A stretch of 44,241 nucleotides of DNA, the filler included, from Jimgerdemannia flammicorona (taxonomy: Eukaryota): NCBI GenBank assembly GCA_003990765.1. It is 2 parts of 2 records of this genome, joined end to end, with 100 filler letters (N's around TTAATTAATTAA, not from the genome) between each part and the next. Parts side by side here need not be neighbours in the genome. Positions count along the whole stretch, not along the records: positions 22,175 to 44,241 come from RBNJ01001341.1; 1 more part is not named here. One strand, written 5' to 3'. The notes below the pieces were generated by a model. The model made no database searches. It saw only the letters and a program-made list of their open reading frames with translations, and was not told the origin of the DNA. Position 1 is the first letter of the stretch. Every line of letters begins with the position of its first letter. The position numbers and the translations under genes are program-made. This document shows, one piece after another, positions 3,001-41,526 of the stretch.

Positions 3001-5700
3001 GAGGTATTGAGGTGCCAATGTCCAGGCCCCTCCCCACTTCCCCCAAAACTCCCCCCTCCCAGAAGGCCCCAGTGATCAGACCATAGATATCAAACAGTTT
3101 CTAAAAATCTCCAGATATCAACTCTCCAGTATTCAGCAGTTAACATTCAGTCAATATATAAGTCCAACTCTATTACCCAGAGAGTATAGATCCTGCAATC
3201 TCTCCATCCAAGTCTCTCAGTATTTACTAAGGAACTCAGATGTTTGAATTTCTCTCAGGCTTCCATCCCACTACTTCTATCAGCAATCTCTCTTCTCCCA
3301 TCAGTTCTGTCCACCTTTCCATCTTGTATCATGTTAAAGTCTCCACCTAGATAGTCAATCTCTGTCTCTACCAATACTCCAGACTCTTATAGCCCTCAAA
3401 TTCATTCCACCCTCTCTCCTCTTTCCACTGGATAATAATATGACCCAACAGTCAAGAGTCTCTAGCCCAGCCACTTCCAAACTCCCCACACTACCCTGCT
3501 CTCTCAATATCCAATGTCCCCAATATCCCCCTGCTCTTTCTAACCAGAATATCTATACACTCCCACTAAATAGCCATACTACTCCATTCTTTCATCTAGT
3601 CCAGACTATTCAAGTCTCTATAATACTCAATATTCTATAGTAGGAACAAATCTGCATCCAGCCCCTTCAGCCAGCCAAAGATATTTTGACACCTCACCAC
3701 TCTCTATAGCCCATTGACATTCAAAGATAAGATTCTAGTTATACTGTTTATATTGAATAATATTATTTGAAGAATAGTCATCCACTCTATAATTCTATAC
3801 TCACTGCATCACTAGTAACATCTAGGTTTCTCTCTATCTCAAGCTCATCTGCCTCTTTCTGCTGAGCCTCCAATGCCTCCAAAATCTCCTGATAATCTGT
3901 ACCATCCACAGCTTCCATCTCTATCTGGTACTCCTCACACATCACCTGTTTCTTTATCAGCTCTTTTCTTAGATCTCACATATATACAGTTCTGTTATTT
4001 GCAATTACCAGAAGTGCTGCCTCCCTATAATCATCTACTTGATATATGTATCTCAGCCTCTAGCAAAGCTATTATTATCTTATCTCAAAGTTTCCATGAC
4101 ATCTCCTTGCTATGCAGAATTTCACCCCAGTGCTACTCACTTAGTACCCAAAAGTTCTCTCCCCCTAGCTCCTCAGTCACTATATTCTCTAGTATTTTCC
4201 ACAGCTATTTCTCCTTATCCACAGCCTTCTCCACTCTCTGGGCCACCCCCTTCTCCCCTTCCATCTGCCTATCCTCTGTATTCCTTCTTGCTGACTCATC
4301 TCAATTCTCCTCCAGTATATTCTATAGTATATCATCACCTTTAGCCCCACCTGGCACTCCATACTGAGAACACTCCACCTCTACTATCTCCTCATTCTCT
4401 ATGACAACACTCAGTCCTAAGCCTCCTCTCTCTCTTAGGGTCTCCTTTAGTACCACTTCCTTTTTTTCTGTCTAGGTACTCACCCTTAATCCAGCTTCTT
4501 CAGTAGTGGGCCCCCCAACTGCCCCCCCTCCCAACTTAGCCAATAGATTCTTCTAAATATACCTCCCCTGCACCTTCTCCCAGACTGTCTGATCCAGCTG
4601 CACTTTCTTGCCATTTATGACCTCTACTACCATTCTGATCTCAAACTTCTTTCAGGTCAATCTCTTTCTCTCTACAGCCTCAGTCAGATCCTCCAATACC
4701 TTCAGCAAGTTCTCTTCTTTCTCCAGCATCTCTTTTACTCTCAAGACCTTGTACTCTACAGGTTCTCATTTGAGGACTACTGGCCAGTCTCTCACTTTCC
4801 CCATATTCTCCTTACCTGCTAGCTGTACCCTGACATCCATATCTTCTGTTCTGAACTCTGTGTCTTCTCAGACCCAAAACTCAATATCTACAATATCTCC
4901 ATACTTCTTGATGGCCTCTACAATTAACCCTCTGGCCATCTCCTTTAATATCCAACACTATCAGCTATATTACATATAGGTCTCAGTACAAGTACTAGAC
5001 CATAGGGATCACTATCCCCCCCACTACCACTCTCTTCTCTATTGCTTCCAATAGTATATTCTCCTTCTTGAAACCTACCTCCATCTCTTCTAGACCCTAC
5101 AAAAATTTCACCAAGGCTGCTCCCTTCACCTTCTAGGCCAGAAGCCCCAGAATCATCCTTACTATCACTGCCAAGCCCTGGAAATATAACATGATAGTGA
5201 ATTCTGATCTTGATTTCTTGAGTAACAGTACTGCTACCAGGTCTGATACACCATCCACCAGATCTCTGGGCCTCATGCCCACTCTCTGTCCAGATCCACT
5301 ATCAACTATTATATCTGGATTTTTTTTCCAGATTAGTAGTCTTCTTGCTATCAGCAGTTCTACTCTCTCCAACCACTACTCCCCCAGCTCTGCTGCCCTC
5401 ACCACTATAGACTGCTCTATCAGACCCTGCAGCCCTCACTGTCTCCTTGCCCTTCCTCAGCCAATCCTCCAATCCAGTCAATGGATGTCCCTCCTTCACC
5501 TTGTCTGCAAAGCTCATCCTCCCAGTCTCCTATCTTCCAGTACTGTCTCCTCTTCTTCTACATCCTCCAGTCAGCAAGTCTCACATACTTTCCCCCAAGC
5601 TATGACTCCTTCCCACATGCTGCCAGTCAAATGCACTAGAGCTGTCCTACTCAGCATACACTTCAGAATACTCATTGGTTGCTATATTGCTAATATCTAT
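1..5700 (-). mobile_element. Degenerate near-full-length L1/Tx1-type LINE (copy 1)
   Basis: Poly(T) at 1-23 is the minus-strand poly(A) tail, preceded by AATAAA. RT motif DQEKVYDRV lies at 1769-1951. APE-like segments (LNVNGL, WSDHW) lie at ~3000-3750. The copy is collinear with copy 2 and has many stops. The 5' end is approximate. Confidence 0.9.
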
Positions 5701-5719
5701 TCTCCAAAAAATGATATCT

Positions 5720-6990
5720 TGAGTGTTGCCAGAAGTTTGTATAATCTGAATATTATCAGAGAAAGGTGATTATGAAGCTTCTACCATATTCTAATATATC
5801 AGGACTTTGTCTTCTATCTTGATAATCTCTAGAGACTTGTAAGTCTTTTCTGTATTATTCTACTATAGTATCTGTACTTTGGTTATATAATCCTCAGCCT
5901 TCTTTCTGATTTGGTATAGTCTCTATATCTCTTTATCTATATGTTTCCATACAGCATCTCTATTGAATAATAAGGTTCCTTGAGAACTTTCTTCTTTAAA
6001 TAGCATCTCTCAAGGGGTGAAATGGGTACTTTGTGATCAGATATCCCAAAGAGCAGATAATGCTATTGGCAGATAGTGATTTCAGTTTTCATAGTTATCA
6101 CAGATCTTAGTAATGATATTCTTGAGAGTCTTGTTTGTTCTTTCTGCTATCCATTTTCCTAATGGTGATAAGCTGTAGTCCAAATATGCTAAATCTTGTA
6201 CTTCTTATAGAGAATCTCAAAGAACTGATTTATAAATTCTGTTCTTCTATCTATAGTTACTTGTGCTGGGGTCTTAAATTGGTAGATAATTTCTTTATAG
6301 AAGAAATTGGCAATTGACTGTGCATTGGCTTCTTTGAAGGGTCCTGTCTCTATCTATTTTGTAAAAAGGTCTATAATGATAATTATATATCAGTTGTTAG
6401 TCAAAGTCAAGGGTAGAGAGCCAATTACATCTATTACAATATATGCAAAGGGTACTGGTTCTATGTGTGCTGATCCTGGGATCTGATTTTGTTGGTCTTG
6501 TTTCTGTTTCTGATATTTGTCACAGATCTTGATAAATCATCTAATGTCTTCCTTTGGCTACTACATTGTTCTTCTTACTTTATCATATGTATTTGTTCCT
6601 CCTAGATGACCAAGTTCATATACTGATTTAATTGCTTGCTCCTTCTTGTATTTGGGTATAACTAGTAGCTTTCCTTTCTTTAGTATTTCTCTATTAGTCT
6701 CAAATTATTTCCATGTTCTGTTGATAATCATTTATATCTATTCTTCCAGATATTGGGATATCTTTCACTGTCCCAGATAGGTAATAATTCCATAGTAGAG
6801 TTCTTTATTCATAATTGGTTTATTGGTTGGGAGTTCTTTGGGGTATTTATGAGAGGGTATCTGCATTAGTATTAGTTTTTCTAGGGTAGTATATAATGGT
6901 TATGTCATAGGCTTGTAACTTTATAATCCATCTGGCATAGATTCCTTTGAGTTGAGAGTGGGTATGCTGCTACTGCTTAAATCTTGAGAG
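5720..6990 (-). mobile_element. Ty3/Gypsy pol remnant (RNase H end plus integrase)
   Basis: Minus-strand translation gives ARWIIKLQAYDITIIYYPRKTNTNADTLS, then HHCC-like HLGG..ICDKYQK, and core motifs IDVIGSLP / IIIIDLFTK / TTAYHH, with stops. Confidence 0.85.
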
Positions 6991-6992
6991 AG

Positions 6993-6994
<2 letters not shown>

Positions 6995-7056
<62 letters not shown>

Positions 7057-10000
7057 GTCTCTTAGACTCCTTTATTACAAACTATCTAATACAATAATGC
7101 AGAACCACAATTCACTACTAATCCTATAACATATACAGAAGTAGAGTCCTTTAGCCAACTCTTTCCTTTCATCTTACCCTACTATCATCTAACACTAGAA
7201 ATCCTCAACTCTGCAATACAATGTCCTACACCTTCTTTAAGGCCCCTGGCTGAAGTTGCCTCCCCTGATATCACCACCCCTGAACTACCTTCTGTATCAG
7301 CCACCTCCACTACTCCACTATCTCTCCAATCTCCATCCATAGGTCCTGTTCAAAAATCTACTGCCAATGCACTGCCATCAAGACCCAGACCCCCAAAACT
7401 TGACCTAAGCCCTCCCATATATCACCAATTTCCCCTACCAGCTGGTGCTTGACCACCAGACTGGCCAGATCCTCCGCCCTTCATCTCTCTGGGCCCCAGT
7501 AACCTTCCAGACTCTGCCAAAACCCTTCCACACCTGGACAGGCCCCCAGAACATGTTCCGGTGTCTGAACAACCCCTCCATCCACCTCATTACACTACTC
7601 ACAGTCTCGATAGCCATCTACCTTCATCCAGCCTGTCTGATAGCTCAGCATCACATTACATCTCAAAAACCGCCACCAAACCACCCAGTATATGGGGGGC
7701 ACCATCTTGTGTACCAAGGTTCCCCAATTCCAAATTTGAACCCACTCCCAGTCCTCACCAATATCAGCTCTCTGCCAACCAGGTGGCCATCTCTCCAGAG
7801 GGCCAAACCTGATCCACTCCATTGCCTCAATCAGGGAGTACTCCTTCAGACTGTGGCCACTCACGTGCAGGTCACCCAGTCACCACCAATGCTGCTCAGG
7901 GTCTACCCCCACCTCTATCTCTGGGCCTGCCAACCCCATGGCCAGCCAGGCCTCTACAATACTCCACCAGAACCCCTTGAAATGCAGCCTACCTACACTC
8001 CCAACCTGAAGCAAGCCCCGCATATCCTTCTAGACATCCACACAAGAGCAGAAACTGACCTCCCAATTGTCCATGGCCAGCCTGCCCCAACCTTCCTCAC
8101 CAAGTTCTATCAGTTGGTGCCCCCACCAACCCCGAAGTACCTTCAGTTAGCGCCTGAAATCCACCAGCCCCAGGCCGCCATCAGAAGTCCTCATCACCAA
8201 AGTCTCCCATCCAATCTGCAGATACCTCCCATGCCATATCCACCCTTTGACAATTTTCTTCAACTGCTGAACCACCCACTCTGGAAAATCCAGATGATAA
8301 CCTAGATACTACAGTTTGGGCAGCCAATTCACATTCAAGACCACTATCCTTCCAATCAAAGAGAAGCTCCTTCCTGAACAACCTGTCAATGCACCTTCCA
8401 GTCTCTGAATCAATCCACACCACCACTCTCTCAGCAGAACTGTCCCATACACCAAGAACTAAATACCCAGATACCGAACAGCACTCCCTCTAGCTACCAA
8501 TTGTCCAAATTGTCCATGTCCCCCCAGGCCAGCACCAAGTTCCATTGTCTCACACTTGCCCCAGTTCAACTTTGCCCCTGCCAGCCTCTCATACTGACCC
8601 ACCCCTTCTTGTAGGACTACTACATCCTCCTGACTGCCCAACCCTACCACCATGTCATCCGCAAAGACACCCAACTTCCAGACTACATCTCCCATCTGCA
8701 GTCCAAAAAGTCACCCCTTCAGCCACACCAACAAAGGCTCTAGAGAGAGTACATAAAGAAGAGGGGAGAGAGGATCCCCCTATGGTACCCCTTGCCCCAA
8801 GGCAAACTCTGGTCTACACCATCCATTCATCATCACTACAGCTTAGCATCCTTGTACCAAGCCCATCAGTCACCCTGCCTTTACGATACTGAACCCTGCC
8901 CTCCTCAGAACAGCCTTCAAGTAGCTCCACTGCACTCTGTCATAGGCCTTCTCTTGATCCAGAAAGACCATCTGGCCATCTACCTGCCAGCTCCTACAGC
9001 TCTCCAAGACATTCTACACTCAAGCAGTACTATCTCTGATCTGCCTCCCCTTGACAAAGCCTTGCTACTCTTCTCCAACTAGCACACCAACATATTGCTG
9101 CATCCTCCCTACCAGAATCTTTGACACCAACTTTCTATCTACATTCAGCAGCATGATAGGTCACCAATTGCACCACACTTGTCGATCTCCCTTTTCCTTA
9201 TATAGAAGAGAGACTAGTCTCAAGGAACCATTGCCGATCCAGCTACTCTCCTTCAGAACTGCATTGGCCATCTCTACCAACCAGTTACCAAACTTGGCCT
9301 TGAACTCCTTCCAGAATTCCCAGGGCAACCCATCCTCCCCAGAAGATGAACCAGTCTGCATCTTCCTCAGTACTTCCAATACTTCATCTAAAGACACCTC
9401 CCCCATGACTACCTCTCCTATCTCGGGTATCACTGTCACTGACCAATTAGTCACCATATTGTCATTATCCTTCTGAAGCCCAGCCTCCTCAGCATGCTCC
9501 CTACCATCCTGCCAAAGAGCTTGCCATTGACTGAATACCTCTCCTAGCATGTCAGCAATTCCAGAGACCTCCACTCTATCTTCACACAATACTGAGGCCC
9601 AACTATGTCACACTTGTCTGACCTTCAAAACACCAGACAGATATCTTATCAGCCTCTCTCATTCTTCCAACCATCTAGCTCACAGCCTGGCCAGCAGGCC
9701 ATCCACCACCCTAGTCTCTTTTTTTTTTTTTATAGTCTCCACCACCCTAGTCTCAGACACCCTTAAATCTGTCTGCAACCCTGCCACCTCTAATGCCAAC
9801 TGGTGGTACACCTCTCCAGACAAGTTCCCCTTTTCCAAAAGCTTCAATCGCCATCTCAGCCCCTTTTCAACTCTCCTTTCCTTGTCCTTCCATTCCTTCC
9901 CAGCTACTTCTCCAATATCCTGCCAGTAAGTACCAGCCAAATGTTTGAATTTACCCTACCATTCTGCTATCAACTGTTCTTTATTCTGCCATCACAAAAC

Positions 10001-12680
10001 TTCCTGTCTCATAACTGTCACAAAATCATCTCTCTCCTTCTTCCTCTTGAGTAAGGCTACATTAAGGTACTAGTACCCTCTGCCACTGCTTGCTGCTTGA
10101 AATCTACCACAAACCTCTACTCCCCAGTGATCAGACCAAGGGCACCAGTGTACCTCTGCAGTGTCCAGTATATTACCCCAGCACTCCGCCACTAGCACCC
10201 AATCTATTTGCATCCCAATGAACATTGTTCCAACTGGATGCCACCAGGTGAAAGGTCCCAACTTATCCCCCTGTCATTGACAAATGCCATCCACCAAACT
10301 CATGTCACACTCCATCTGAAGCCACTGAGAAAGTCCAGAGGATACCATGACTCCTGCTCTACCATCAGACCTTTTCAGTACACGATCACACACCATGTTA
10401 AAGTCCCCCCCCAGAATGTCCAAAGCAACTACCTCCTGACCATCCCATGCCAGCCATCTCTCAACTCATTGCTTTTGCTCTCTGCCAACTGCTGGGAGGT
10501 AAACTGAGCCAACTGTCAAACCATCACTAGCCCCACCTTTTAGTCTTCCCCAAATCAGTCTATCACCATAGATATCTACCTCCACCAGCTCACCTTTGCC
10601 AACACCAACCAAGACGCCCACCTGCTTATTCCAACCTGCTCCACCATACCATTCTTTACTCTACATCTCAAAGTCTGACTCACCATAAGCCCAAACATTC
10701 TGAAGAAACACAACATCATACCTCCTGACTTTAAGCTATCTGAAGAGCCGCCATCTTTTAACATCATCCTGCAATCCATTGACATTGATTGACAAAATAC
10801 ATAGGTTGTTCATCATCATTAAGGAAATTGTTTAAAGCTCAGCTGGGACTGCCACCACTTTCTCAGCCCTTCCTCTAACAATCTCTTGCTGGTTCTCACA
10901 AATTGCCCTCCAGATTTGATCACCATTTGCACTGCTGCAAAAAAGGTCCACTCTCTCTGTCATCACCTTCCTAATATCTGCCATCCTGCTCTTGTCAACA
11001 TCATATCCTTCATCATCCAGCAGGGCAGCTACCATCACCATCACCAGCTTAGGCCCCTGCATCACAATATTGAGGAATCCTTCCCATGCCTCCTGAGATC
11101 CATGAAACACATCTACTTCCTTGATGTCTTCCTCTACCAGCTCCTCAAGTACTGCCTGATACCAGCTCTCTGCTGTCATCACCAGGGGCCTGGGAGTCGA
11201 TGGCCTTGGGGTTCTGCTCAGCTCTTGCAGTTGCTCTCTGTCCACCAACACATCAGAAGTCACATCCACCAGCTCATTCTCCTCAGCAACTTTCTCCAAA
11301 TGAATAACCTCACCAGCTTCTGGGCACTCCCAATGGATATTCGCTGCTCCCACCATATAGGTATCCTCCACCTACTTCATCATCAACCTCAAAGCCTCCT
11401 TCACCAACCTCCTCCTTATCTGCCCACTTTCCTCTCACCAGCACATGTGCTGAGTTCTCTACACCACCCAGCTGGGAGAAGGACACCTCCACTGCCTCCA
11501 CGCCTTCCATCTGATTCTTGGCGGCCTCTACTCTTATCTCCTCTTCTATAGCTGCCCCTTGAAGGGCTGTCTACAGATGCTCCCAATTTCCTTTCCTCCA
11601 TCTCTTCCACTTGCCATCAGCCTCGATCCAGACCCAATCCTTGGCATACTCCTCCCACTTCCTCTTTTGCAGCTCCTTGGTAGCCTCTCTCTCCTCCAGA
11701 GCAATTGCCAACTCTTTCTCCTCCTGTTCTGCTCCCTTTCTCCTCCAGACCTTGCATTTCTGCCCTCCAATTCTAATCCCCTCAGGCCAATCACAGCCCA
11801 GCCCAGTAGCCTCCTTGTCTTCCAGTCACAGCATCACCTTATAGTTGCCATTCCTCAATTTGGTACCCTCCCAGAACATGAACCCAAAGTCCACCATCTT
11901 ACCATATCCACCTAGTGCCTCTACCACCATCTTCTTGGTCTCCTGTCTGCCCAGGGTCGGTAAACCTTCCACCACCAGCCAAACAGCATGTGGATTTCAC
12001 CTCAGACACCTTGCCATCCCAATCTGGATACCCTTGACCATCATCCCTTTCTCCAGCACCTTCACCATTACATTCTCCTCCACAAATCCAATCTCCACAG
12101 CCTCCACCAAAGGGATGAACTTCAGAGATTCTGCCCCAGCCACTTCCTCTCCCACCAACCTCAGAATCTCCCTTGCTGACATCACCAATCCCAGGAAGTT
12201 TACCAAGACTGCTCACATTGACACTGATTTGTGGAAGAAAGGCCTCACCACCAACTCACCTGTCTCTGCTGCCAGAGTCACCTTTTCCTTGGTCCTTGAA
12301 ACATCTGTAGTTATTCCACCAGGCACAGCTGCACCACCAGCAGTCCTCTCCCCAGCCACCTGCTCAGCCACAGAAGAATCAGTCTCCAGTGTCCCACTAC
12401 CAGACCCCTGTCCCCTGCCAGCCACCTGACCCATCACCTGACTCATCACCTGACCCCTCCCCCTGTCAACACTATGCCCCCCCTGTCTAATCCCCATGGG
12501 CCTAGTTGCAGCCCTCCTATTCCCAACCACTGTATGCCAGGCCTTGGTCCCACCAGTCCTCCCCTGTCCACCAGCCCTTTCTGCAGCTACACCAGCCCCT
12601 GCAGCAGCCGCAAAGCTCTTAGAAATACTCAGACCAGGTCTCCTTCTCTCCAGATGCTCAGAGCTAGAGGAATCTTAACT
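6995..12680 (-). mobile_element. Near-full-length degenerate L1/Tx1-type LINE (copy 2)
   Basis: Poly(T) at 6995-7053. ORF2 starts at ~10819 (MMMNNLCILSINVNGL, APE). RT motifs GEDGLPWEFW (9161-9589) and FADDMVV (8459-8695). C-terminal CxxC..PEH..C at ~7540-7600. ORF1 remnants at 10832-12530. Confidence 0.92.
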
Positions 12681-13667
12681 AGCCATGTCGCCAAAACTTA
12701 TCAGTTTTTCTGTACCTTGTAGGTAGACTCCTACCATATGATGTATACCATTATGTTCAAAATAAAAACTTAAAAATAGGTTGTCTTTTGCTGAAAGATG
12801 TCTGTGTGGCTTAGCTCTCTCTGAATGGTTCAAGCAAAAGAAGTCCCCCTGTTGAATGATCTGTTATTCACTCTTCCCTTCTCTCTCCTCTTTACCTCCC
12901 CTCCCTTCTCTCCCTCTCTCCTTACCCTCTCCATACCCCCTCTTCTTTCTCACTCCCAATTCTCATTGTACTATTCAATCATGCTTGCTGGGTTGCTCAA
13001 TGCCTTGATACTGTCCTGCACTCTTCTCTTTCATGCCATGGACTTTCATCTCTTTCTTGATACTCTCTGATCACTCGTTCGCGTCTTCCTTCTGTTTCTT
13101 CTCTAATCCATCACTCTCATTTGTGTTTTCATCACCTTCTGGTGTCTCTGGTTCTGCTGGAGAGGATTAAAAAACATCCTTGCCCCCTTTGGGGTCTCAC
13201 GCTCACTCCGGGGTCTCAGCCTTACTCCACTCTCCTCCACTACCTTTGGCCCCTTGCTTTGCTTGGGCTTACTGTAGCTTACTCCATTTCGGCCTCACAT
13301 CTCGCTCATGCTCACCCCTCCAGGGTCTGTGGATGTGTTTTAATCTTAATTTGGATTTGTCTTGTTTGTGTTTATTTGTGATTTTTATCCTGCAACTGGG
13401 ATTGGCTCCCCCTTTATCTCTGCCTATCTCTGGTAGTCATGTGGTTCCTAATTCGGTTTGCCCTGAGTTGTGGTGCATCCTCTCTTTTGGGATGTCATAT
13501 TTTGTATATAAGGACCACATTTTTACATAGTAATAAATGGCTGATGCATTTTCGGTTACGTTCTTTGTTTGTTCTCCTTATATACACTTTTCTACATATC
13601 TTCTGTTCACTTTGATACTGGCTCTGGGTTTGCTCCCTTGACTCCCACTGGGCCTTCCTCCTCCTCG

Positions 13668-14289: not shown

Positions 14290-15073
14290 AGTAAGTAAAG
14301 GACTTATATACAGGACTCTCTCAAAAGGACTGATATATAGACTAAGGCTTAAAAAAGCCCTACTCTTACTCTTTGAGTCTGTAGGCCTCAATTATATCGC
14401 TATGTTAGCTCCTAGTTCTAATTAAGTACTGCTAAATAAGGGAGATCCCACTCTCCAAGCCTGTAGGCCTCAATTGCATTACCACATCAGCTCCCAGTTC
14501 TAGTTGGATACAGCCAGGACACCAGCCCCTATACTACTCTACTCTCTATCAGCCAATCAAAAGGCCCTACTGAGATAATGTCTACTCTAATCCCAATGAC
14601 TGCTCCCAGCCTGATACCTTACTGGTCCACTATTATTGCCCTTCTGCCTATCTGTAACAGCCATCTCCCCTCCTATATCAGAACTATGCTCATGGAGAAG
14701 TTCACCAAAGCTCAGAGAGCTCCACTATAAGTACTGAGGACTTATAGGTAATTTATACTGACACTTGATACCTAAGGTCAGCTGACTCTATATACAGCCT
14801 ATGACACACCAGATGATACCTTGTTGGTGATGGCAAAAAGGAAGAAGGTACCATACTTGGGTATATTCTAGATATAGCCAAAGGTATTAGAAATCATAAA
14901 GATACTAATCTAATACTAATAATGGGACAACTCAATATCATTGCCTCCCTCCCACCATATCCTTGCAGGCACAACAAACCAACCTGAGGTAGAGGGGGTA
15001 AAAATAGGAGAAAGGGGACTTGGAAGGTTGCCTACCAAATCTTGTGATCAGTAAGATAGTGGAGAAAGGGGCT
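14290..15073 (-). mobile_element. Partial copy of the ~1.2-kb non-autonomous retroelement found at 36692-37882
   Basis: Collinear similarity to 37086-37880 (e.g. GTAAGTAAAGGACTTA; ACCTTGTTGG..AAAAGGAAGAAGGT; GGAGAAAGG). Contains an internal ~55-bp duplication (~14377 and ~14458). Confidence 0.8.
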
Positions 15074-25992: not shown

Positions 25993-26004
25993 TATATATA
26001 GTAT

Positions 26005-29000
26005 AGTGACAGCAGAGTGTTGGGGAGCAGATGTCTGGTCAGTGCTGGAAGTAGTTTAGTATTCATGGTCTGATCACTAGGAGCTGCTTGGAGGGGGGAG
26101 GTTTGGGGGAAGTGAGGATGGGCCTAGACATTGGTGGCTAAATTCTTCCTTATTAAAGGATAGGGTATTGTGGGAGGGTTGGAAAATGGAGGTGGTTGGG
26201 AATATTGGTAGGTGGTGGGAACAAGGTCTTGAGATTAGGGACTACTGGAGAAGACTGAAGGCAAATTCTCAGAGATATTAGAGGGAAGCAGGGAAATGAA
26301 AGTGTGCCCAGCAAAGGCAGAGGGTACTGTGGGCCTTGCAGTATCTGGCAGTACTCATAGAGAGATGGGCAGATGTGCTGGAAGATGGGGAGGTGACTGA
26401 TTGGTGTATTGTGAGAATCTGGCAGAAGGTAGAGGAGCTTAAAGGAGTATTACAAAGAGAGGAGGAGGTGAAGCTACAGAGAATGGTGGCCCAACTGTGG
26501 TGGCAGGGGCTTGAGGTGGGGGAGAGGCCTACTAGGTTTTTGTTGCAGTTGTTATAAGTATGATGAATAAAGCAGTGGTGGGAGGGAGTTCTGGATACGA
26601 ATGGTAAGCTGGTGGTGGGGACTCTGGCAATTCTGGGCCTATTGAGAACTAGTTGAGAGAATCTTTGGAGTGAGGAGGAAGGAGGAGTAGATGCTTTGGA
26701 CATTGAAAGGCAGTTGGGGGATTGGTACCCGAACCCTGTGATGGGCCTTGGGACATTGGGGGACCCAGTGAGTGGTGAGGAAATTTGCAGGGTTGTGGCC
26801 TCGATGAGTAAGAGAACAGCTCTGGGAGAGGATGGACTTCTCTGGGATTTTTGGCAGAAGATGGCTGGAGTGAGTGAGGTGCTAGAGGAAATGACTGCTA
26901 TGTATGATGGAGTTCTTCAGTCAGGTGCTTGGATTGGGGGACAGTACTTAGGGCTAGTCTCCTTACTCTACAAGAATAAGGGGAGGCAAGAAGACTGGAA
27001 GAACTGGCAGCCAATTATACTTCTCGACATGGACCACAAACTGGTGATAAAGATCTTGGTGATGAGGCTGTAAGGTATTGCTCAGCAGGTGCTTGGTGTG
27101 GAGCAGCGTGGGTTTGTTGGTGGCCAGTTGATTCGAGATGAGACAGCTTGGGTACATGGAGTGATTGAAGGTGCCTGGGTGATAGGAGTGGATGGCAGAT
27201 TAGTATTTCTGGATCAAGAGAAGGCTTATGATAGAGTGCAAAGGATATGGCTAGAGGGAGTACTGAAATGGATTAGTATCCCCCCAGAGTTCTGAGGATC
27301 ATTGATCAGCCTCTTGACAGACAGTCAGGCAGCATTAATTGTTAATGGCCACAGGGGAGTGACCTTTCCCCTGGGACATGGGGTACTGCAAGGAGACCCC
27401 TTGTCACCCATATTGTATGCCCTCTCCTTGGAGCCTCTACTGGACAGAATTTGGTGCCAAATTGGGGGCTTGGACATTTTAGGGATTAATTGGAAGGTAG
27501 AGGCCTTTACTGATAATATAGTGGTTGGGCTGGGCTCCTTGGAGGATGTGGGGGAGTTACAGAGGTCTGTAGAATGGTATGAGAGGGATTCTAGTACTAA
27601 ACTAAACTGGCACAAATGTGAGACTCTGGTTCTGGGTACTGGAATTGTTGGTGGTGATGTAATTGGGATAGTGGTACTGGCTGGCAAACCAGTGCATTAT
27701 TTGGGGATCTACTTTTTAGTATTCAGATCTCTTCTTCCCTGGATATAGTGGGACTGACAACTTCTGGAGTGGGGAAATGTTCTGCTGTGATGGGGAGGTC
27801 AGCATATATCTCTAGCCAGAAGGGTGATGGTGCTGAATGTGTATTGGATGCCGAAGCTGTGATATGTGGGATATTATTTAGATTTCCCAACCTAGGTGGT
27901 CAAGGGGCTATTGAAGATGGTGAGGTCATAGATCTGGGGAGGGCAGTGAAGCCAGGTGGGTTGGGAGGTGCTCACACTGCCCTTGAAAAGAAGTGGGCTG
28001 GGCTTAGTGGACTTTACTAAGTAGCTTCAATGTTTGAGAGCTTGGTGGTTGTGAAGGGTGAGTGAGCTTAGGGGTTGGGAGTGGGTGCCACTTATGCAGA
28101 GGTTGTGGGAGGTTCAGTACTCCCCATGTGGTAACTCGGGTGACCTGCTTGTGATGGTGGCCATGGATGAGAGCAGAAGAATGCAGTTTATGGGCTTCTG
28201 GTGGGGGGTAGTAGATGGTGCTAAGAAAATTGGACTTCGGTAGTAAGGTAATGAAGCTGAGAAGGATTAGAGACCACAGATATGGTGGTGGGACAGGCTT
28301 CTACTGGGTGGTGTTCCAGTGGAGAATTTTTAGCTTGGCGAGAGTCTGGAGTATCTGTGGGGTCTGGGTGGAGACCTGTGGCCCAAGGCCTGGCAGAGGG
28401 TTGGAATTAGTGAGGAGTGGGATTGAAATGGACTCTGGCTTTGGAGCAAAAGAGTGAGGCAGTGGCTGCCCCCCAAGTTCTGGGTGGTATGGTGGCATGT
28501 CCTACAGCAGAATGTGATATTGAACTATCAGTCTAGGTACTTGGTGGATAGTGGAGTATTCGAGTACGAGGATTGTTTTGATGTTAGTCAGGAGGGAGGA
28601 GTGGTACAAATGCCTGAACATTGACTTAGCAAGTGCAAGGTTTTGGAGGAGTTTTGGAGATGTATTATAGACCAAGTAGGACTGAGTGCCTTGGAGGGAG
28701 AGGAAGGGGGGAGATGGGGAGAGCTCTACCGGCGACTGGTGGGTGGGGTTGGGGATGAATGGCTGACCCTTAGTTGGGCTTTGGCCATGTGGGTTGAGTT
28801 AGCTGGGCATTGGGTTCATGTCTTTGAGGAGGAGTGGTGGGTTGGGGTTGGGAACAAGGTGGCACATTGGGAATGGTTGCTATTGGACATTTTGAATAGC
28901 TGGTGGCAAGGTTGGGGGCTGAGTGGGGGGAACCACAGAGGTTTGGTACAGTGTATCTCCCAGAAGAGTGGTGGGAGGATTCAGATAGTGGATAGTTGGG

Positions 29001-33417: not shown

Positions 33418-33774
33418 GAGAACGATCTCATGTGGGTGGCGGAAAGGGGTAATTTGTCGTGGGGCAATTTGTCGTGGGATGCTTAATGATGGATCTGGAA
33501 CCATATTTTGCAAGATTAAAGGCAATGTTTTTGTAATGTACATACGGGCAAGAATATCATTTTTGGATATAGCACCCATTATGGTATTAAGTAATATATC
33601 GATGGGCCTGATGACGTAGATCGTGACGAGATGGGAGGTTGGCTTTTTTTTTTTTTCCCACAAAGCCGTGCACAAAGCCGTGTTTCGGAGGCCCGAAACC
33701 AAACATATATCGCACAACCCCCACCATGTCTATCCCCCTACCTCTCCACCTCCGACCTCCAACCTCCATCAACA

Positions 33775-35154
33775 ATGGACAGCAGCGCAACCACTAACTT
33801 CGCCCTCCCCCCCTTCGGCCACCCTATGCTTCGCCACTTCCTCCTCGAAGATGGCTTCGTCTCCCTAAACCATGGCTCCTATGGCACCTACCCACGCTCC
33901 GTCCGCGACTCCCTCCGCGCCTACCAAGACTTGGCTGAATCGAATCCAGACCGCTGGATGCGCAAGACGATGCACGACGAAATGACCAAAGTCCGCAGCC
34001 GCCTCGGTGCCTTCCTCAACTGCCCCCCAACGAACCTCGCCATAGTCCCTAACACCTCCGCAGGGATCAATGCTATCCTCCGTAGCATGCACCTCCGGCC
34101 GGGAGACAAGCTCCTCTGCCTCAGCACAATCTACGAAGCCATGCATCAAACACTGTGTTACCTGTGCGACACGCACGAAGGCGTTTCCCTGGTGTGCGTC
34201 GAGGTCGCCTACCCGGTCTCAGACGACGCGTTGGTCGAGGCCGTCGAGCAGGTGATCGAGGAAGAGGAGCGAAAGGAGGATGGGCTGGTCGGCGGACGGA
34301 TCCGGATCGCGATTGTGGATGCCATTTCGTCGCAGCCTGGAGTTAGGGTGCCGTTTGAGCGGCTAGTGAAGGTGTTGAAGAGGCATCGCATACTGTCGTT
34401 GGTAGATGGGGCGCATGCGATCGGACACATTCCGTTGGATTTGCAGGAACTCGATCCGGATTTCTTGGTCACGAATTGTCATAAGTGGCTGTACTCTGTG
34501 CGTGGGTCCGCCGTGCTGTATGTGCCTAGGAGGTGGCAAGTATCCGTGCACCCGACCTCTATTAGCATTGGATATAAGGACAGGGATTTCCAGGCCGAGT
34601 TCGAGTGGCAAGGGACGATAGATTTCAGTGGCTATATGACCATTCCGGCTGGTATGGGTTTTATCCCTATATTCCTGGAATTTGCGTGCCTTAACTGTAA
34701 TCGTTGGTTCCACTACTCTTTACTTATGCCATCCCCCTCTTCTTCGATTCCAGCCCTCGACTTCCGCACCACCCTCGGTGGCGAATCGCGTATTCAATCC
34801 TACTGCCACACCCTCGCCGTCCAAGGTGGCCAGTTAGTCGCTCGACTTTGGGGCACATCGGTGATGGAAAACCCCGAAGGCACACTGACAGCGAACATGG
34901 TGAACGTACGGCTCCCGCTGACGACGCCAGCGACGGACAACAACATGGTCAAGCGGCAGGTGCACTACCTAATGGAGGTGCAATTGCTCGAGTTCCGCTG
35001 CTTCGCTGCTCCGTACCGGCACGCGGGCGCGTGGTGGGTGCGCATGTGCGCGCAGGTGTACAATGAGATTGGGGATTTTGAGGTCGTCGCTAAGGCTTTC
35101 GGGGTCGCGTGTAAGAGGCTCGAGAGCGTAGGGGGTGATGTGGATAAGTTGTAA
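33775..35154 (+). CDS. egt2: PLP-dependent class-V aminotransferase / C-S lyase, hercynylcysteine sulfoxide lyase (Egt2)-like
   Basis: Motifs LNHGSYGTYP, VDGAHAIG, TNCHKWLY (PLP lysine) and FEWQGTID. Likely start is MDSSATT at 33775. One intron at 34652-34753 (GTATGG..CCAG). Substrate specificity is inferred from the family only. Confidence 0.82.
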   Translation: MDSSATTNFALPPFGHPMLRHFLLEDGFVSLNHGSYGTYPRSVRDSLRAYQDLAESNPDRWMRKTMHDEMTKVRSRLGAFLNCPPTNLAIVPNTSAGINAILRSMHLRPGDKLLCLSTIYEAMHQTLCYLCDTHEGVSLVCVEVAYPVSDDALVEAVEQVIEEEERKEDGLVGGRIRIAIVDAISSQPGVRVPFERLVKVLKRHRILSLVDGAHAIGHIPLDLQELDPDFLVTNCHKWLYSVRGSAVLYVPRRWQVSVHPTSISIGYKDRDFQAEFEWQGTIDFSGYMTIPAGMGFIPIFLEFACLNCNRWFHYSLLMPSPSSSIPALDFRTTLGGESRIQSYCHTLAVQGGQLVARLWGTSVMENPEGTLTANMVNVRLPLTTPATDNNMVKRQVHYLMEVQLLEFRCFAAPYRHAGAWWVRMCAQVYNEIGDFEVVAKAFGVACKRLESVGGDVDKL

Positions 35155-35297
35155 GTGACGGCGTGTTTCACTTTTATACACTCGAAATGGGATTGCAATG
35201 TTGATAATGCGACGTTCATAAAGTTGGTATGTCGTGTATTCATTCATTCGAGTGCTGTATGTATTAAACAAAGCAAATGGATACTGCTATAAACCAC

Positions 35298-35450
35298 GAT
35301 CTACGCCTACATTGGAACCTATACATTCCTTATCAAACCTCACATTACTGTTTAAGTCTATATTAGGATATATACAAGTCCAGTAAGGGAGCAGGTTCCC
35401 GCGCCAGCCCTTTTAGGCTGACTCTTTCTGAATGGTGAGGTAACAAAGGA
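35298..35450 (-). ncRNA. Putative Fanzor omegaRNA scaffold plus flank-derived guide
   Basis: Stems CAGCC/GGCTG (35405-35420), GGGA/TCCC with loop ACCTGC (35387-35400) and TTACTG/CAGTAA (35345-35386) lie between the tnpB stop region and the right-end GG. The 5' boundary is unknown. Confidence 0.6.
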
Positions 35451-38060
35451 GAATGTTGTGAGTGTCATTGAAATCCCGGTCAAGCTTTGTCTGACATGCT
35501 GGACAGCAAAACACCTTAGATCTGCCTAGGCCACAGTGGAGATATTCATAGCATCCACATGTTTTAAAAGTATATTCTTTGTGCAGAAGATGACCTGGCA
35601 CCATAGATGCTCTTATACTTTATGAGTCAGATAAGTGTGACTATGTGTATATTGTATATGTAGTTTTAGAACAAATATAACATTATTCTATCTGATTATC
35701 TTCTGTATACAGAATTCTGACAAAAAAAATAATATGATAGTTCTCACATAGCTACTGTGTGAGCTTATTATAAATATGTAACATAATATATCACAATCTA
35801 TAATTAGTAAATTTATATATATCTCTTTCAATATCTGATCTCTTTTTTACAGTTGAAGAGGTTAAAAACAATGTATATCAAACTGATCTATAGTATTTAT
35901 GCTTGTTTATCTTTCTATGAATACTATCTCACTTACTTTAAAGCTTATCATATTTATAACTCAGTCTGTAAATATGGATAATATTATTCTTTCCTTACTC
36001 AATTGCTAGCCTACTTGGATCATATCTAGTCATAAAGATTTATACACTAGAATTTAATATAATAACTCCTGTACCTCTTTTACCAGATATAGGGCCTTGG
36101 CTCTTAGTCTATATATTAAGGAGTATAGAGATATAGAGATAGAATTCACTAAGATGATTTATTATAAGCTAACTATTATATTTAAGATTGACTGATAAAG
36201 GTTCAGTAGATCTCATATTAGAGAGGAATGCAAATTCACTATATGATTTCCTCCAGTACTTGGAAAGTATTGCAATTGACTAAAAAAATAAAATAAAATA
36301 AAATAAAATAAAAATAAATTATTGAAAATTATAAGAATTTAATATAAAATCAAAATGATTTTCATTTGTTGATAATTCTTTTTAGAATGAAATTTCATTT
36401 GAAACATATGTTTTGCTATAAAGTTAGAGATATACTCCTTGAAAGAGTCATTTATAGTCTTATAATAAATATCATATGGTGTCTTCAGAACTCACTCATC
36501 ATTGTTCTTGAAGTTAAAAGTATTGAGATACCACACTCTCAGATTCTTCTTACAGTATTTTATACTTTTGTTTTGAACTATGGTGAGATACTGATTATAT
36601 ATCCATCATGTTGTTCTCATTCTTAATTATTAATATTATAAGTATAGTTGTTTTAAGAGACAAAAAAAAAAAAAAAGATAAATTCATCTAATTTTTTTTT
36701 TTTTTTTTTTAACGGACTCATGTCCCATGGAATTTTATTGGAAGGGAACCTAGACTATATAGGCCAAAACCCTCCCCTACCACCCACCAAGCACTGTCTC
36801 CCTATTAACTTAGGTTAGCTATTATCCAGCAGCTCAACCATGCTAGATACAGCAGGACCTATATTGGCCCATATCTCATTCTATACACTATACTCTCCCT
36901 ACTACCAGGAGAAACCCAACTATATGCCAACAACCAAAAGTGCATGCCTGAGAACTCAACATATGTACAAGGCCATGTCTGAGCCAAATAGAATAGCTCC
37001 TGCCATCCCAAAGAGAATGATAGGCAAAAAAAAAACTCTCATCAAAGTACAACATGGTGAGTAGGATCTGGTTCTCCCAGTCGAGGTAAGTAAAGGACTT
37101 ACATATGAGGTGGGAGGAAGCCCCCAATACCCCACTACTCAAGTCTGTGGGCCTTGATCACATTACCATATCAGCTCTCAATTCTAGTTGAGTGCAGCTA
37201 AGATGCCTGAAATGGATAGCCTTGGGCCCTCTGACCCCTCCTGATGACTGGGGCCCAACCCCACTGATCACCAAAAGAAGCTGAGAGTGACACCTACCAC
37301 CTAACCATACTGTATCAATCAAAAGGCCCCACCAAAGCAGCATCTGCCCCAGCCCTAATGACCACCCCCAGCCTGGCACCCTACTGGTTCACCATTATTG
37401 CCCTTCCTCCTATCTGTGATGACCATCTCTCCTCCCATCCTGACAATATCTGAAAAGCAGTTACCTATACCAGAACTGCACTCGCCGGGAAGCTTGTCAA
37501 AGCCAGAGGGCTCCACCACAGGCACCAAAGATCTGCAGGTAACCTATACTGAGCACTTAATGCCCAAGGTCGGCCAACTTCCTACATAGTCTGAGATACA
37601 TCAAGACAACACCTTGTTGGCAATGGTAAAAGGAAGAAGGTGCTGCACTAAAACAAGTATACCCCAGATATAGCTGAAGGCACTAGAATCTGCAAAAAAG
37701 TGGAGGAAGCACCGATCTGATACCAATAAAGGGGCAACTCATCACCATTGCTCTCCTCCCACCATGCCCCTACAGGTACAGCAAACCAACCCAAGGTAAA
37801 GGGGGTAATATTAGGGGAAAGGGAACTTAGAAGGTTGTCTACCAAACCTTGTGACTGATAAGGTAGCGGAGAAAGGAGCCTGGATAAATTCATCCAATAT
37901 ACCAGTATATAATACAGTATTGTAGAAAAAAAAAAATGCTCAAAAGAATAATTATTATATTCTAAGCTTCTACTACTCCTTATAGATAGAAAAGAGGTAG
38001 ATTTTTTATACTTTAGCTAGTAGCTCCTTAGAGATCTTGGTTCTCTTTAATAACTTCTTA
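35413..38060 (-). pseudogene. tnpB: Fanzor2 (IS607-type TnpB) RNA-guided nuclease pseudogene with 3 introns
   Basis: AKV*KIYLF..KLR | MRTT*WIYNQ..E*VLKTPYDI..FQMKFHSKKNYQQ | SIAILSKYW..GVIILNSSV*IFMTRYDPS (RuvC-I, ancestral ALDPGVRTF) | LCENYHII..SEF (RuvC-II) ..EYTFKTCGC..GRSKVFCCPACQTKLDRDFNDTHNILL (Zn finger plus RuvC-III). The start position is uncertain. Confidence 0.9.
36692..37882 (-). mobile_element. 1.19-kb non-autonomous poly(A) retroelement with a 15-bp TSD
   Basis: Poly(T) at 36692-36710 with AATAAA upstream on the minus strand. TSD GATAAATTCATC(T/C)AA at 36677-36691 and 37883-37897. A second copy lies at 14290-15073. Confidence 0.9.
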
Positions 38061-40661: not shown

Positions 40662-41464
40662 GACGAGGGGGGAAGGGTGAGGGAGAAGGGGAATGTTGGA
40701 GATGAAATAATTTGGGGATGGATTCACGTGAATGTCCAGGGTGGGTTAGTGTCAGGGCTCATGGTGGAACTGTTGTTCGCTTGGCATTGGATCACATTCA
40801 CTCAATGATGCATTGAAACACAAAGGAAGAGGAATGCATATCGAGTCTCAGGCGCTTGCTGGTATATTTTGCATCCATGAGAAAAACAAAGAACACAACG
40901 TCCGAATAACAAACGAGACTGTCCACAACCCAAGAGAGAGCCGAGTTAAAAGAATTGGCGACCAAACAGGCCATAGACCAATAAAGAACAGGCCAAGGAC
41001 GCCCCGGGCGTCCGGCAAAAGCACAGACCAAGATTTAGGGTATAAGGCAAAAACTAGGATAATGCAAAAGCACACTGTAAATGAGGATTGAATGCGAGAA
41101 CAGGATAGTACAGAACAGATGATTTTCTGTATGAACGGAATATAATGTTCGATGAAGAGAAACAAGGGGATATACTACACGTCTAGGCAAAGGCGGGAGG
41201 GAGGGAGGAGGTTTGGGGTAAGGGGAGGGGTAGGGGTAGGGGTAGGGCGCAATGTATATACGGGAAAGGAGTGGTGAGTGATTTGAGAATGCTGATGCAC
41301 AAGACGTAGGAGAGGGGGAGAAGAAATATAGTTTTCGCGGGAAAGGGTAGTTTATAGAACCCCGTAATGTATGAGTTTGCCGAAAAGTTCGATGTAAAAA
41401 TGATGTGAAGAATGCCGACCAGGACCAATCACTACTAAAATGGTGATAAGAAAAAAAGAAAGAA

Positions 41465-41465
<1 letters not shown>

Positions 41466-41526
<61 letters not shown>

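Follow-up and report, generated by a model that had tools for sequence, protein, structure and literature searches.

A probable omegaRNA gene with a covarying pseudoknot at the right end of a dead IS607-type Fanzor2 element in Jimgerdemannia flammicorona

Introduction

The architecture considered in this work, an omegaRNA that reaches the right end of its transposon, is already known from ISDra2, ISXfa1 and ApmFz2, the Fanzor2 of Acanthamoeba polyphaga mimivirus. In the accessible text of Yoon et al. (bioRxiv 10.1101/2023.08.09.552727), the reRNA of the IS607 TnpB of ISXfa1 (Xylella) and the omegaRNA of ISDra2 are described with three stem-loops and with a pseudoknot formed between an apical loop and the bases beside the guide. 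As a known rule, the DNA that immediately follows the right end of the transposon supplies the guide, according to the same portions of that text. The ISXfa1 pseudoknot was proven by the rescue obtained with U-130A and A-3U, the RNA region contains the TnpA repeats, and the scaffold is taken to include the first base of the flank (Yoon et al., bioRxiv 10.1101/2023.08.09.552727, accessible text). Both transposons are bacterial, and the available description of ISXfa1 gives GG as its core, CGG as its right end and GGG as its TAM.

For ApmFz2, the cryo-EM structure, in the available part of its report, assigns positions −4 to 0 to the pseudoknot and GGG to the TAM (PMC11832414). Fanzor proteins have a rearranged active site in which the RuvC-II Glu is replaced by Pro or Gly and an alternative Glu lies about 45 residues downstream, as stated in the accessible portion of PMC10530073. 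The eukaryotic IS607-type Fanzor2 elements are described, in the consulted parts of Bao and Jurka (2013) and Yoon et al. (2023), as carrying no long TIRs and no clear TSD.

Here, we analyse an element of Jimgerdemannia flammicorona (assembly GCA_003990765.1) contained in a stretch of DNA of 44,241 nucleotides, which is called the window throughout and to which all positions refer unless otherwise indicated. The minus strand of the window carries, at approximately 38728-35303, a dead IS607-type element made up of a serine-recombinase remnant, a nested retroelement-like insertion, a Fanzor2 remnant and the remnant of an omegaRNA scaffold (Table 1). We estimate at roughly 85% the probability that the last of these, 35451-35303, is what remains, after mutation, of the omegaRNA (reRNA) gene of a transposon of IS607 type in which TnpA and Fanzor2 were formerly encoded. 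A prediction made earlier for this locus (the original prediction) had proposed an omegaRNA scaffold downstream of the Fanzor2 stop codon, and its hairpins, pseudoknot, end, guide and empty site are considered below together with the evidence that bears on each.

Table 1. Positions of the features of the element in the window
Feature	Position	Strand	Remarks
Left end of the element (±3 nt)	38728-38726	-	CGG(A)TTC, where likeness with relatives begins
IS607-type TnpA remnant (MerR-like HTH and serine-recombinase catalytic domain)	38672-38080	-	Frameshifted, with stops
Nested insertion with poly-A tail	37882-36693	-	Foreign to the Fanzor element; interrupts colinearity with relatives
Fanzor2 remnant, from HTH/REC part to C-terminus	36620-35416	-	24 in-frame stops; RuvC-I D changed to N; 86-nt extra
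OmegaRNA scaffold remnant as modelled	35451-35303	-	Covariance model; true 5′ end may lie deeper in the ORF
Hairpin 1, 6-7 bp (35422-35417 with 35408-35403)	35422-35403	-	Stop TAA (35415-35413) in the loop
Hairpin 2, GGA-ACCUGC-UCC, 3-bp stem and 6-nt loop	35399-35388	-	Loop 35395-35391 is the predicted 5′ strand of the pseudoknot
Long hairpin (35381-35349 with 35344-35315)	35381-35315	-	Carries the AAUGUGAGG / AAUGUAUAGG repeats
Pseudoknot 3′ strand (predicted), GUAGG	35310-35306	-	Pairs with hairpin 2 loop CCUGC, 35395-35391
Right end, terminal CGU	35305-35303	-	GGCGT common to 4 of 4 sequences; flanks beyond unlike
Presumed guide flank of the fossil, AGAUCGUGGUUUAUAGCAGU	35302-35283	-	Presumed from the right end at 35303; length of 20 nt assumed

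Results

Relatives of the element were sought in metagenome contigs by a protein-alignment scan, and the 80 loci used for comparison are the best of 565 confirmed relatives (595 matched stretches). An exact IUPAC pattern scan of the metagenome contigs for the region of hairpins 1 and 2 gave no matches. At the DNA level, the same element family was recognized in L002, L003 and L044, and additionally in L030 for the 5′ part. The positions 38672-38253 and 38245-37965 of the window match 211-625 and 698-982 of L002, and 36620-36366 and 36279-35303 match 993-1253 and 1254-2191 of the same locus, with 86 extra AT-rich nucleotides of the window copy (36365-36280) that are absent from the relatives. 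Comparison of the window with the metagenome loci showed that colinearity is resumed across the gap of the nested insertion, which lies between the two copies of a direct repeat of 16 nt (37898-37883 and 36692-36677; 15 of 16 positions identical), bears its poly-A at approximately 36720-36700 and is 68% like the positions 14554-15072 of the window.

The Fanzor2 ORF is interrupted by this 1.19-kb insertion. Downstream of it, a single minus-strand frame (36612-35416), translated with its 24 stops read as X, aligns with the relatives at several motifs, namely VIILNSSVxIFMT in place of ALDPGVRTF (RuvC-I, whose Asp is now Asn), EYTFKTCG, the CxxC...CxxC ribbon and DRDFNDTHNIL (RuvC-III). In the raw remnant, Pfam detected Cas12f1-like_TNB (PF07282) with an E value of 5.1e-5 and 23.8 bits, which is under the curated cut-off of 26.3. 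A HMMER search of 1.84 billion representatives retrieved 896 relatives at E ≤ 1e-3, 208 of them at E ≤ 1e-10, with a best value of 2.2e-27, and PF07282 was found in 14 of the 16 top relatives scanned, mostly alongside HTH_OrfB_IS605 and OrfB_IS605. The profile of the relatives, in turn, matched the window at 36279-35416 (1.3e-46) and at 36620-36360 (1.1e-13). A weak second profile match, RWTYN-like, was also observed at 38149-37910 (E 0.064).

Comparison of a profile made of the remnant and 25 relatives (26 sequences) with solved structures in the PDB gave ApmFz2 (9B0L chain P) as the closest entry, with an E value of 2.8e-48 over nearly the full length, followed by an AI-designed nuclease (2e-23), ISDra2 TnpB (about 2e-16) and Cas12f (1e-10 or weaker); none of the 21 profile matches is labelled as a Fanzor1. 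Searches of the PDB with the raw remnant by phmmer gave chance matches only. In the relatives, Pro occupies the canonical RuvC-II position (column P321) and a Glu (E368) is found 47 residues downstream, both residues being nearly invariant; the window copy retains the downstream Glu, and its Pro position is decayed. The closeness to ApmFz2 and the rearranged Pro/Glu site of the relatives identify the nuclease remnant as that of a Fanzor2, a class call drawn from profile and active-site comparison. The adjoining gene had been named as a Fanzor2 in the original prediction as well.

Upstream of the nuclease, the Pfam Resolvase domain was detected faintly in the TnpA remnant of the window (E 0.16). 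The segment 38672-38253 is 67.5% identical to the positions 1574-1988 of L044, and the matching frame of that locus contains Resolvase (3.5e-13) and MerR (4.4e-7) domains. The presence of a MerR-type HTH and a Resolvase domain in the homologous frame indicates, therefore, that the element is of IS607 type, with TnpA preceding Fanzor2. The TnpA remnant and the N-terminal part of the Fanzor2 frame overlap each other.

On the left side, the flanks differ among L002, L044/L003 and L030, and similarity among these copies starts at (A)CGGTTC. The window has GCGGATTCCGCACATTCC at the matching place, which was parsed as G-CGG-ATTCCGCACATTCC, with an indel of about 7 nt preceding the shared CGCACATT. 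Four independent left junctions are available in this way, of which the window reads G before CGG and the other three (L002, L044/L003 and L030) read A before CGG. The CGG of these junctions may belong either to the flank, as the original prediction held in proposing a TAM of about (G)CGG, or to the element, and (G)CGG is on these data a possible TAM. The left junction first proposed, between 38726 and 38725, lies within about 3 nt of the place where the likeness of the relatives begins. The left ends of more distant loci were not placeable by motif.

The right end was approached in the same manner. When the segment 35470-35250 of the window was compared by blastn with the 80 loci, the non-coding tail was matched in three of them (L002, L003 and L044), with identities of 76-78% and E values of about 1e-13, and all three matches stop at query position 168-169, corresponding to 35303-35302 in the window. 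In the alignment of the four sequences, likeness runs through TTCCAATGTAGGCGT and ends after 35303, the U at this position being the last base shared; the common terminal stretch is ...GTAGGCGT, or ...GATAAGGAATGTATAGGTTCCAATGTAGGCGT in the wording of the window, and the flanks beyond it are unlike. Straight after the shared end, the window continues with AGATCG, L002 with CCAAGT, L003 with GTAACT and L044 with AACTTA. Since their flanks are related, L003 and L044 were counted as one site, and L006 and L012 are uninformative on the end because their flanks are shared. Another copy was found in the sequencing run X2, where, among about 14 contigs listed, one keeps its likeness to the window as far as 35303 and diverges from it over at least the next 255 letters. 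The right end rests, then, on three to four independent flanks (the window, L002, L003/L044 and the X2 copy). From these comparisons we place it at 35303; should the final shared T be a favoured target base and not part of the element, it would fall at 35304-35305, and the position is accurate to about 2 nt.

The dinucleotides CG, GG and GT occur both in the left start, (A)CGGTTC, and in the right end, GGCGT. Among them, CG is favoured as the candidate crossover core because it fits all copies including the window, and we regard CG (38728-38727 at the left and 35305-35304 at the right) as the most likely crossover dinucleotide. The base before the CG of the right end is G, in comparison with A (three relatives) or G (window) at the left junction. 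With CG as the core, the empty site would consist of the left flank through one CG (38728-38727) joined to 35303 onward.

The region after the Fanzor2 stop codon was then considered at the RNA level. Folding of the 123 nt of 35440-35318 (minus strand) yields three hairpins with a minimum free energy of −38.4 kcal/mol (z −3.17; 2 of 200 shuffles as stable), and all three recur and covary in relatives, in agreement with the three hairpins originally seen at or after the stop. RNAalifold, applied to the four copies, returned the same three hairpins together with one extra hairpin and a long-range helix closing the structure as a whole; the extra hairpin was lost in the window copy through a deletion of about 17 nt. 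The AAUGUGAGG / AAUGUAUAGG repeats of the long hairpin are presumably recombinase-binding repeats. A search of Rfam with the window region gave nothing relevant at E ≤ 10, and the same was true at E ≤ 1 for L002, L003, L017, L006 and L005.

A covariance model was seeded with 35451-35303 of the window and with L002, L003 and L044, and was searched against the window plus the 80 loci (314,001 bases). It gave 15 matches at E ≤ 1, all of them directly 3′ of the Fanzor ORF and on its strand. The window contains a single match (122.4 bits), which is a seed match by construction. Matches outside the seed were found in L017 (6.4e-7), L006 (2.3e-5), L013 (5.9e-5), L012 (9.7e-5) and L072 (6.5e-4), with weaker ones in L005 (1.2e-3), L007 (9e-3) and L004 (0.018, cut by the contig end) and the weakest in L009 (0.031), L070 (0.088) and L027 (0.55). 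The set used for covariation comprises, accordingly, 15 sequences, four close and 11 distant, some of them with weak matches.

In this set, standard pairs occupy 93.5% of 535 cells, in comparison with 76.3% in shuffles, none of 500 shuffles reaching the observed value; the alignment was fitted to the structure of the model, which inflates the number of paired cells, and the margin is still large over the controls with partners slid by 1-3 columns, in which 39-46% of the cells are paired. The covariation among copies and relatives that had been proposed as a check was found: of the 49 pairs, 30 are changed at both positions, where 14.7 would be expected. In hairpin 1 (helix 2 of the alignment), 7 of 8 pairs are changed on both sides and 95.7% of the cells are paired, and in the long hairpin (helix 6) the corresponding values are 13 of 26 pairs and 94.4%. 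The three pairs of hairpin 2 (helix 3) are GC in 15 sequences, GC in 12 with AU in 3, and GC in 11 with AU in 1 and other combinations in 3. The terminal CG (35305-35304) pairs with a UG at 35445-35444, about 140 nt upstream (UG or CG among the sequences), and these pairs (columns 7-8 with 313-314) also covary, with GC:10 UA:2 AU:1 CG:1 in one and CG:9 UG:2 AU:1 UA:1 in the other. Altogether, the covariance model and the covariation in relatives support the presence of a conserved, covarying RNA scaffold after the Fanzor2 stop, where the original prediction had located the omegaRNA.

In the window, the loop of hairpin 2 (35396-35391) has the sequence ACCUGC, the close relatives having ACCUAC. 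In the relatives, a complementary pentamer or hexamer is located 2-3 nt from the aligned 3′ end and changes with the loop. The pair is CCUGC/GUAGG in the window, with one G.U, CCUAC/GUAGG in L002, L003 and L044, GCCUAC/GUAGGC in L017, CUUAC/GUAAG in L006 and L012, CUUAG/CUAAG in L013, CUUG/CAAG in L072, GCUACC/GGUAGC in L005, GCUACA/UGUAGC in L007 and CUACC/GGUAG in L070. L004, whose 3′ end is cut off, was left out of this count, and of the 14 sequences compared L009 was unconvincing and L027 showed four pairs including a G.U. At least five contiguous Watson-Crick pairs are formed between a loop and its own end in 10 of the 14 sequences, as against 17% of 174 swapped loop/terminus pairs. When the register of columns was held fixed, 78.8% of the cells pair and three of the five pairs are changed on both sides (for instance, CG:6 UA:4 UG:3 in columns 115-311). 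The covariance model does not encode the pseudoknot, and the alignment is therefore not fitted to it. A nested alternative helix for part of the terminus, 35385-35382 with 35311-35308, is less well conserved, with pairing in 83% of cells; it is preferred by RNAalifold and competes with the pseudoknot. These data indicate that the loop of hairpin 2 pairs, in a predicted pseudoknot that covaries across relatives, with GUAGG near the right end.

A pseudoknot between this loop (of the GGGA-ACCTGC-TCCC hairpin) and a pentamer at the right end had been part of the original prediction. The idea was correct in kind, since the loop does covary with such a pentamer, and the partner was misplaced by 12 nt, being the intact GUAGG of 35310-35306 instead of a GCAGG restored at 35322-35318. 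To obtain that GCAGG, two transitions had been reverted in the window; ATAGG stands in all three close relatives (L002, L003 and L044), so that there is nothing to revert, and TATAGG is kept in L006 and L012. The end of the element had been set correspondingly at ...GGAATGTATAGG (35318), AUAGG being taken as a mutated GCAGG that pairs with CCUGC, with a guide at 35317-35298 and an empty site joining 38726 to 35317. The fold that ends at 35318 is stable, AUAGG is able to form 3-4 pairs with the loop, and GG occurs at both of the junctions so proposed. However, the likeness of the four copies, and of the fifth in X2, continues 15 nt further, to 35303; relatives have ATAGG at the same place; the pentamer that covaries with the loop is situated 12 nt beyond it; and the 3′ strand of the long hairpin itself extends to 35315. 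Homology among the copies thus ends elsewhere than at 35318 and the consensus terminus is neither GCAGG nor GCGGG, and we consider an end at 35318 hardly credible. The first 15 nt of the guide it implies (35317-35303) belong to the element, and for this reason the right half of the empty site proposed with it is wrong.

A different reading of these 15 nt would place them outside the element, as a conserved insertion target. Serine recombinases can prefer specific sites, and the similar flanks of L003 and L044 show that some insertions do share a site. Against this, the 15 nt include both the pentamer that covaries with the loop and the CG that pairs upstream, across distant relatives, and they fall inside the model alignment even in loci with Fanzor proteins of no more than 40-55% identity. 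The flanks of the window, L002 and the X2 copy are unrelated straight after them. An insertion target appears highly improbable for these reasons.

It is also conceivable that the conserved 3′ region is only a right end at the DNA level, composed of recombinase-binding repeats, and that its structure is a by-product. Three direct repeats of the AAUGU..AGG type are indeed present at the end, with an inverted copy at the left end, and the ends of IS607 elements hold TnpA repeats inside the reRNA region in the accessible text of the preprint on ISXfa1 (bioRxiv 10.1101/2023.08.09.552727). A double-strand recombinase site, however, needs neither compensatory changes, which were found in 30 of the 49 pairs, nor a pseudoknot that covaries between sites about 85-100 nt apart, and the hairpin that holds the stop codon covaries too. 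This explanation is judged improbable in comparison with an omegaRNA gene, the reading that we retain in what follows.

When the window copy is compared with L002, changes of the types G>A (164) and C>T (132) outnumber those of the reverse types, A>G (63) and T>C (59), by 2.4-fold, and its decay reads as GC-to-AT biased. TpA/ApT is about 1.0, but the classical CpA-depletion index of RIP, (CpA+TpG)/(ApC+GpT), gave 1.17-1.24, which is outside the RIP signature, and the decay is for this reason termed RIP-like only. We regard the window copy as dead because its nuclease, its recombinase and part of its scaffold are broken, as read from the stops, the RuvC-I mutation, the split ORF, the deleted scaffold helix and the wobble in the pseudoknot.

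Two sequencing runs, X1 and X2, were available as contigs without strand or RNA ends, and the RNA type of these runs is a guess. An X1 contig is identical to the window over 35356-35836, with a depth of about 10 in comparison with 120 for the neighbouring gene. X2 comes from a relative of the organism of the window, with seven differences in the neighbouring gene, and its record 8 represents a further copy, with 40 differences and three gaps over 35320-35632. Both X1 and X2 carry the insertion, since each has a contig that joins the neighbouring gene to the element, reaching 35347 (X1) or 35349 (X2), and no empty allele was seen in these runs. Less decayed copies were observed in contigs of the organism of the window itself. 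Open Fanzor2 frames of 490-627 codons were found in L002, L003, L017, L006 and L005, and the relatives contain a spliceosomal intron of fungal type, with a TACTAAC branch site.

Discussion

In live copies of the element, RNA transcribed across the 3′ end of the Fanzor2 ORF would adopt a fold in which a hairpin holds the stop codon, and the 6-nt loop of the short hairpin that follows would pair with the pentamer 2-3 nt before the right end to form the pseudoknot. The remaining parts of the fold would be the hairpin lost here through the deletion of about 17 nt, the long hairpin, and the pairing of the terminal CG with CG or UG about 140 nt upstream. The RNA would continue into the flank, which would serve as the guide, from 35302 downward in the case of the fossil. 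Transcription, processing into omegaRNA and binding by Fanzor2 are presumed. The nuclease would then cut the empty donor site, recognized by its TAM and the match to the guide, and repair would restore the element.

This arrangement resembles that of ApmFz2 in its IS607 context, in the rearranged RuvC glutamate and in the N-terminal extension of the protein, and also in an omegaRNA that overlaps the end of the ORF, reaches the right end and forms a pseudoknot with the last bases before the guide, as far as the available part of the ApmFz2 description goes. From the same partial source, three differences can be stated. The scaffold of ApmFz2 measures about 205-247 nt, in comparison with the approximately 150-165 nt modelled here; the partner strand of its pseudoknot is some 190 nt upstream, in comparison with about 85-100 nt for the hairpin loop that is the partner here; and its TAM is GGG, as against left junctions of (A/G)CGG. 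In addition, unlike ApmFz2, the window copy is dead and its relatives have a spliceosomal intron. With respect to ISXfa1, the right end here is GGCGU, and the dinucleotide present at both ends is most simply CG. The A or G that precedes CG in our comparison recalls the contrast of ISXfa1 between GGG (TAM) and CGG (self), within what the accessible text gives of that element, and proves nothing. The combination of a serine-recombinase TnpA with Fanzor2 is shared with the eukaryotic IS607/Fanzor2 elements, according to the consulted parts of Bao and Jurka (2013) and Yoon et al. (2023); in comparison with them, the relatives used here are metagenome contigs with a fungal-type intron, and the window copy shows GC-to-AT decay.

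In the clade to which these relatives belong, tnpA is contained in the N-terminal extension of the Fanzor2 ORF or overlaps it for the most part. We tentatively suggest, as a possibility with less than even chances, that the window copy is a fossil of an intron-bearing, probably fungal clade, maybe with live members, in which tnpA overlaps the N-terminal extension of Fanzor2 in the +1 frame. We found no description of such an overlap between tnpA and Fanzor2, and the supplementary locus and TAM tables of the papers might already include the clade. If true, the overlap would tie the expression of recombinase and nuclease to each other, and the N-terminal domain would have been born by overprinting on tnpA.

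The correction of the end matters in practice, since the guide, the pseudoknot partner and the empty site as first proposed would misdirect a bench test. The gain is an omegaRNA model supported by covariation, with right end and pseudoknot, for a Fanzor2 lineage with apparently intact relatives, and such a model may serve guide design or the search for nuclease activity in fungi. If the reading of the clade given above is true, a new and testable Fanzor2 subtype would be defined by this omegaRNA model, with its support from covariation, and by an end of CG type.

Overlap of tnpA and Fanzor2 reading frames

The serine-recombinase gene tnpA was found to overlap, in a different frame, with the N-terminal portion of the Fanzor2 ORF, both in the window copy of the IS607-type element and in metagenome loci carrying Fanzor2 relatives. 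Among the best 80 of 565 confirmed relatives, matches to both genes were present in 54 loci, and in 49 of these 54 the overlap covered at least 150 nt (median 356 nt). The relation between the frames was constant, as the Fanzor frame corresponded to the tnpA frame +1 in all 93 HSP pairs. The similarity observed in the +1 frame could be in part a consequence of tnpA conservation. The length of the open frames speaks in favor of a genuinely coding sequence. The term "overlap" does not occur with such a meaning in three papers that were checked, and Fanzor is mentioned in none of the 10 papers listed, out of 271 matches, by a full-text search.

Coordinates of features in the window copy and in related metagenome loci
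Feature	Location	Strand	Remarks
tnpA/Fanzor2 overlap, window copy	about 38672-38080		
tnpA/Fanzor2 overlap, L017	Fanzor frame 141-2021; tnpA 206-889		Fanzor frame open, 627 codons; tnpA wholly within
tnpA/Fanzor2 overlap, L030	189-749 and 232-1689		
Spliceosomal-type intron, L002	618-682		65 nt, GT...TACTAAC...AG; inside the overlap
Nested insertion	window 36693-37882		1.19 kb, poly-A tail; splits Fanzor2 remnant
Target duplication around nested insertion	window 37883-37898 and 36677-36692		16 nt
Extra AT-rich bases	window 36280-36365	-	86 nt, inside Fanzor2 remnant; end is pyrimidine run + AG
Contigs of aminotransferase-like neighbour gene	window 33595-35347	+	X1/X2 contigs

Additional stretches in the Fanzor2 remnant

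A second copy similar to the nested insertion (68%) was located at 14554-15072. Parts of the insertion were covered by very deep contigs (depth of about 660 in X1 and 200 in X2, two sequencing runs whose RNA label is a guess), indicating a transcribed, retroelement-like repeat that is present in multiple copies. The 86-nt AT-rich stretch was missing from L002, L003, and L044, three loci of the same element family, and the sequence at its end would suit either an intron that has decayed or an insertion resembling a microsatellite.

Element ends, flanks, and base composition

In the contigs of the aminotransferase-like gene, the intron at 34651-34752 (GT..AG) was spliced out. In X1 these contigs extended to 35347 and in X2 to 35349, thus entering about 45 nt into the right end of the element (35303-35347), where they run antisense to the omegaRNA remnant. 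Instead of marking the end of a transcript, their stop may be a contig break caused by repeats.

An A/T homopolymer run of about 30 nt or longer lies just inside the left end (38700-38672, minus strand), and further runs of this kind occur at 6981-7053 and 41463-41526. Short dyad symmetry about the presumed crossover was observed in the flanks of the window copy (ACCAC ... GTGGT, 38735-38731 with 35295-35291) and of the L002 insertion (CCTTGGA ... TCCAAG); these dyads would suit a serine-recombinase target but may be due to chance.

GC skew was strong and sustained across positions 1-13000 (about -0.4 to -0.5) and across 26000-29000 (about +0.3 to +0.55). The alternation of these GC-skewed blocks with AT-rich blocks (18-30% GC) indicates that the window contains other repeat families of strand-biased composition.

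An intron within the overlap

Removal of the L002 intron restored both the tnpA and Fanzor2 frames, TnpA then reading VVVTRK|DRLCRFG. The intron corresponds to about 1984-2046 in L044, and it is absent from the matching place in the window copy and in L030. The L002 intron points to a host of fungal type for this element family.
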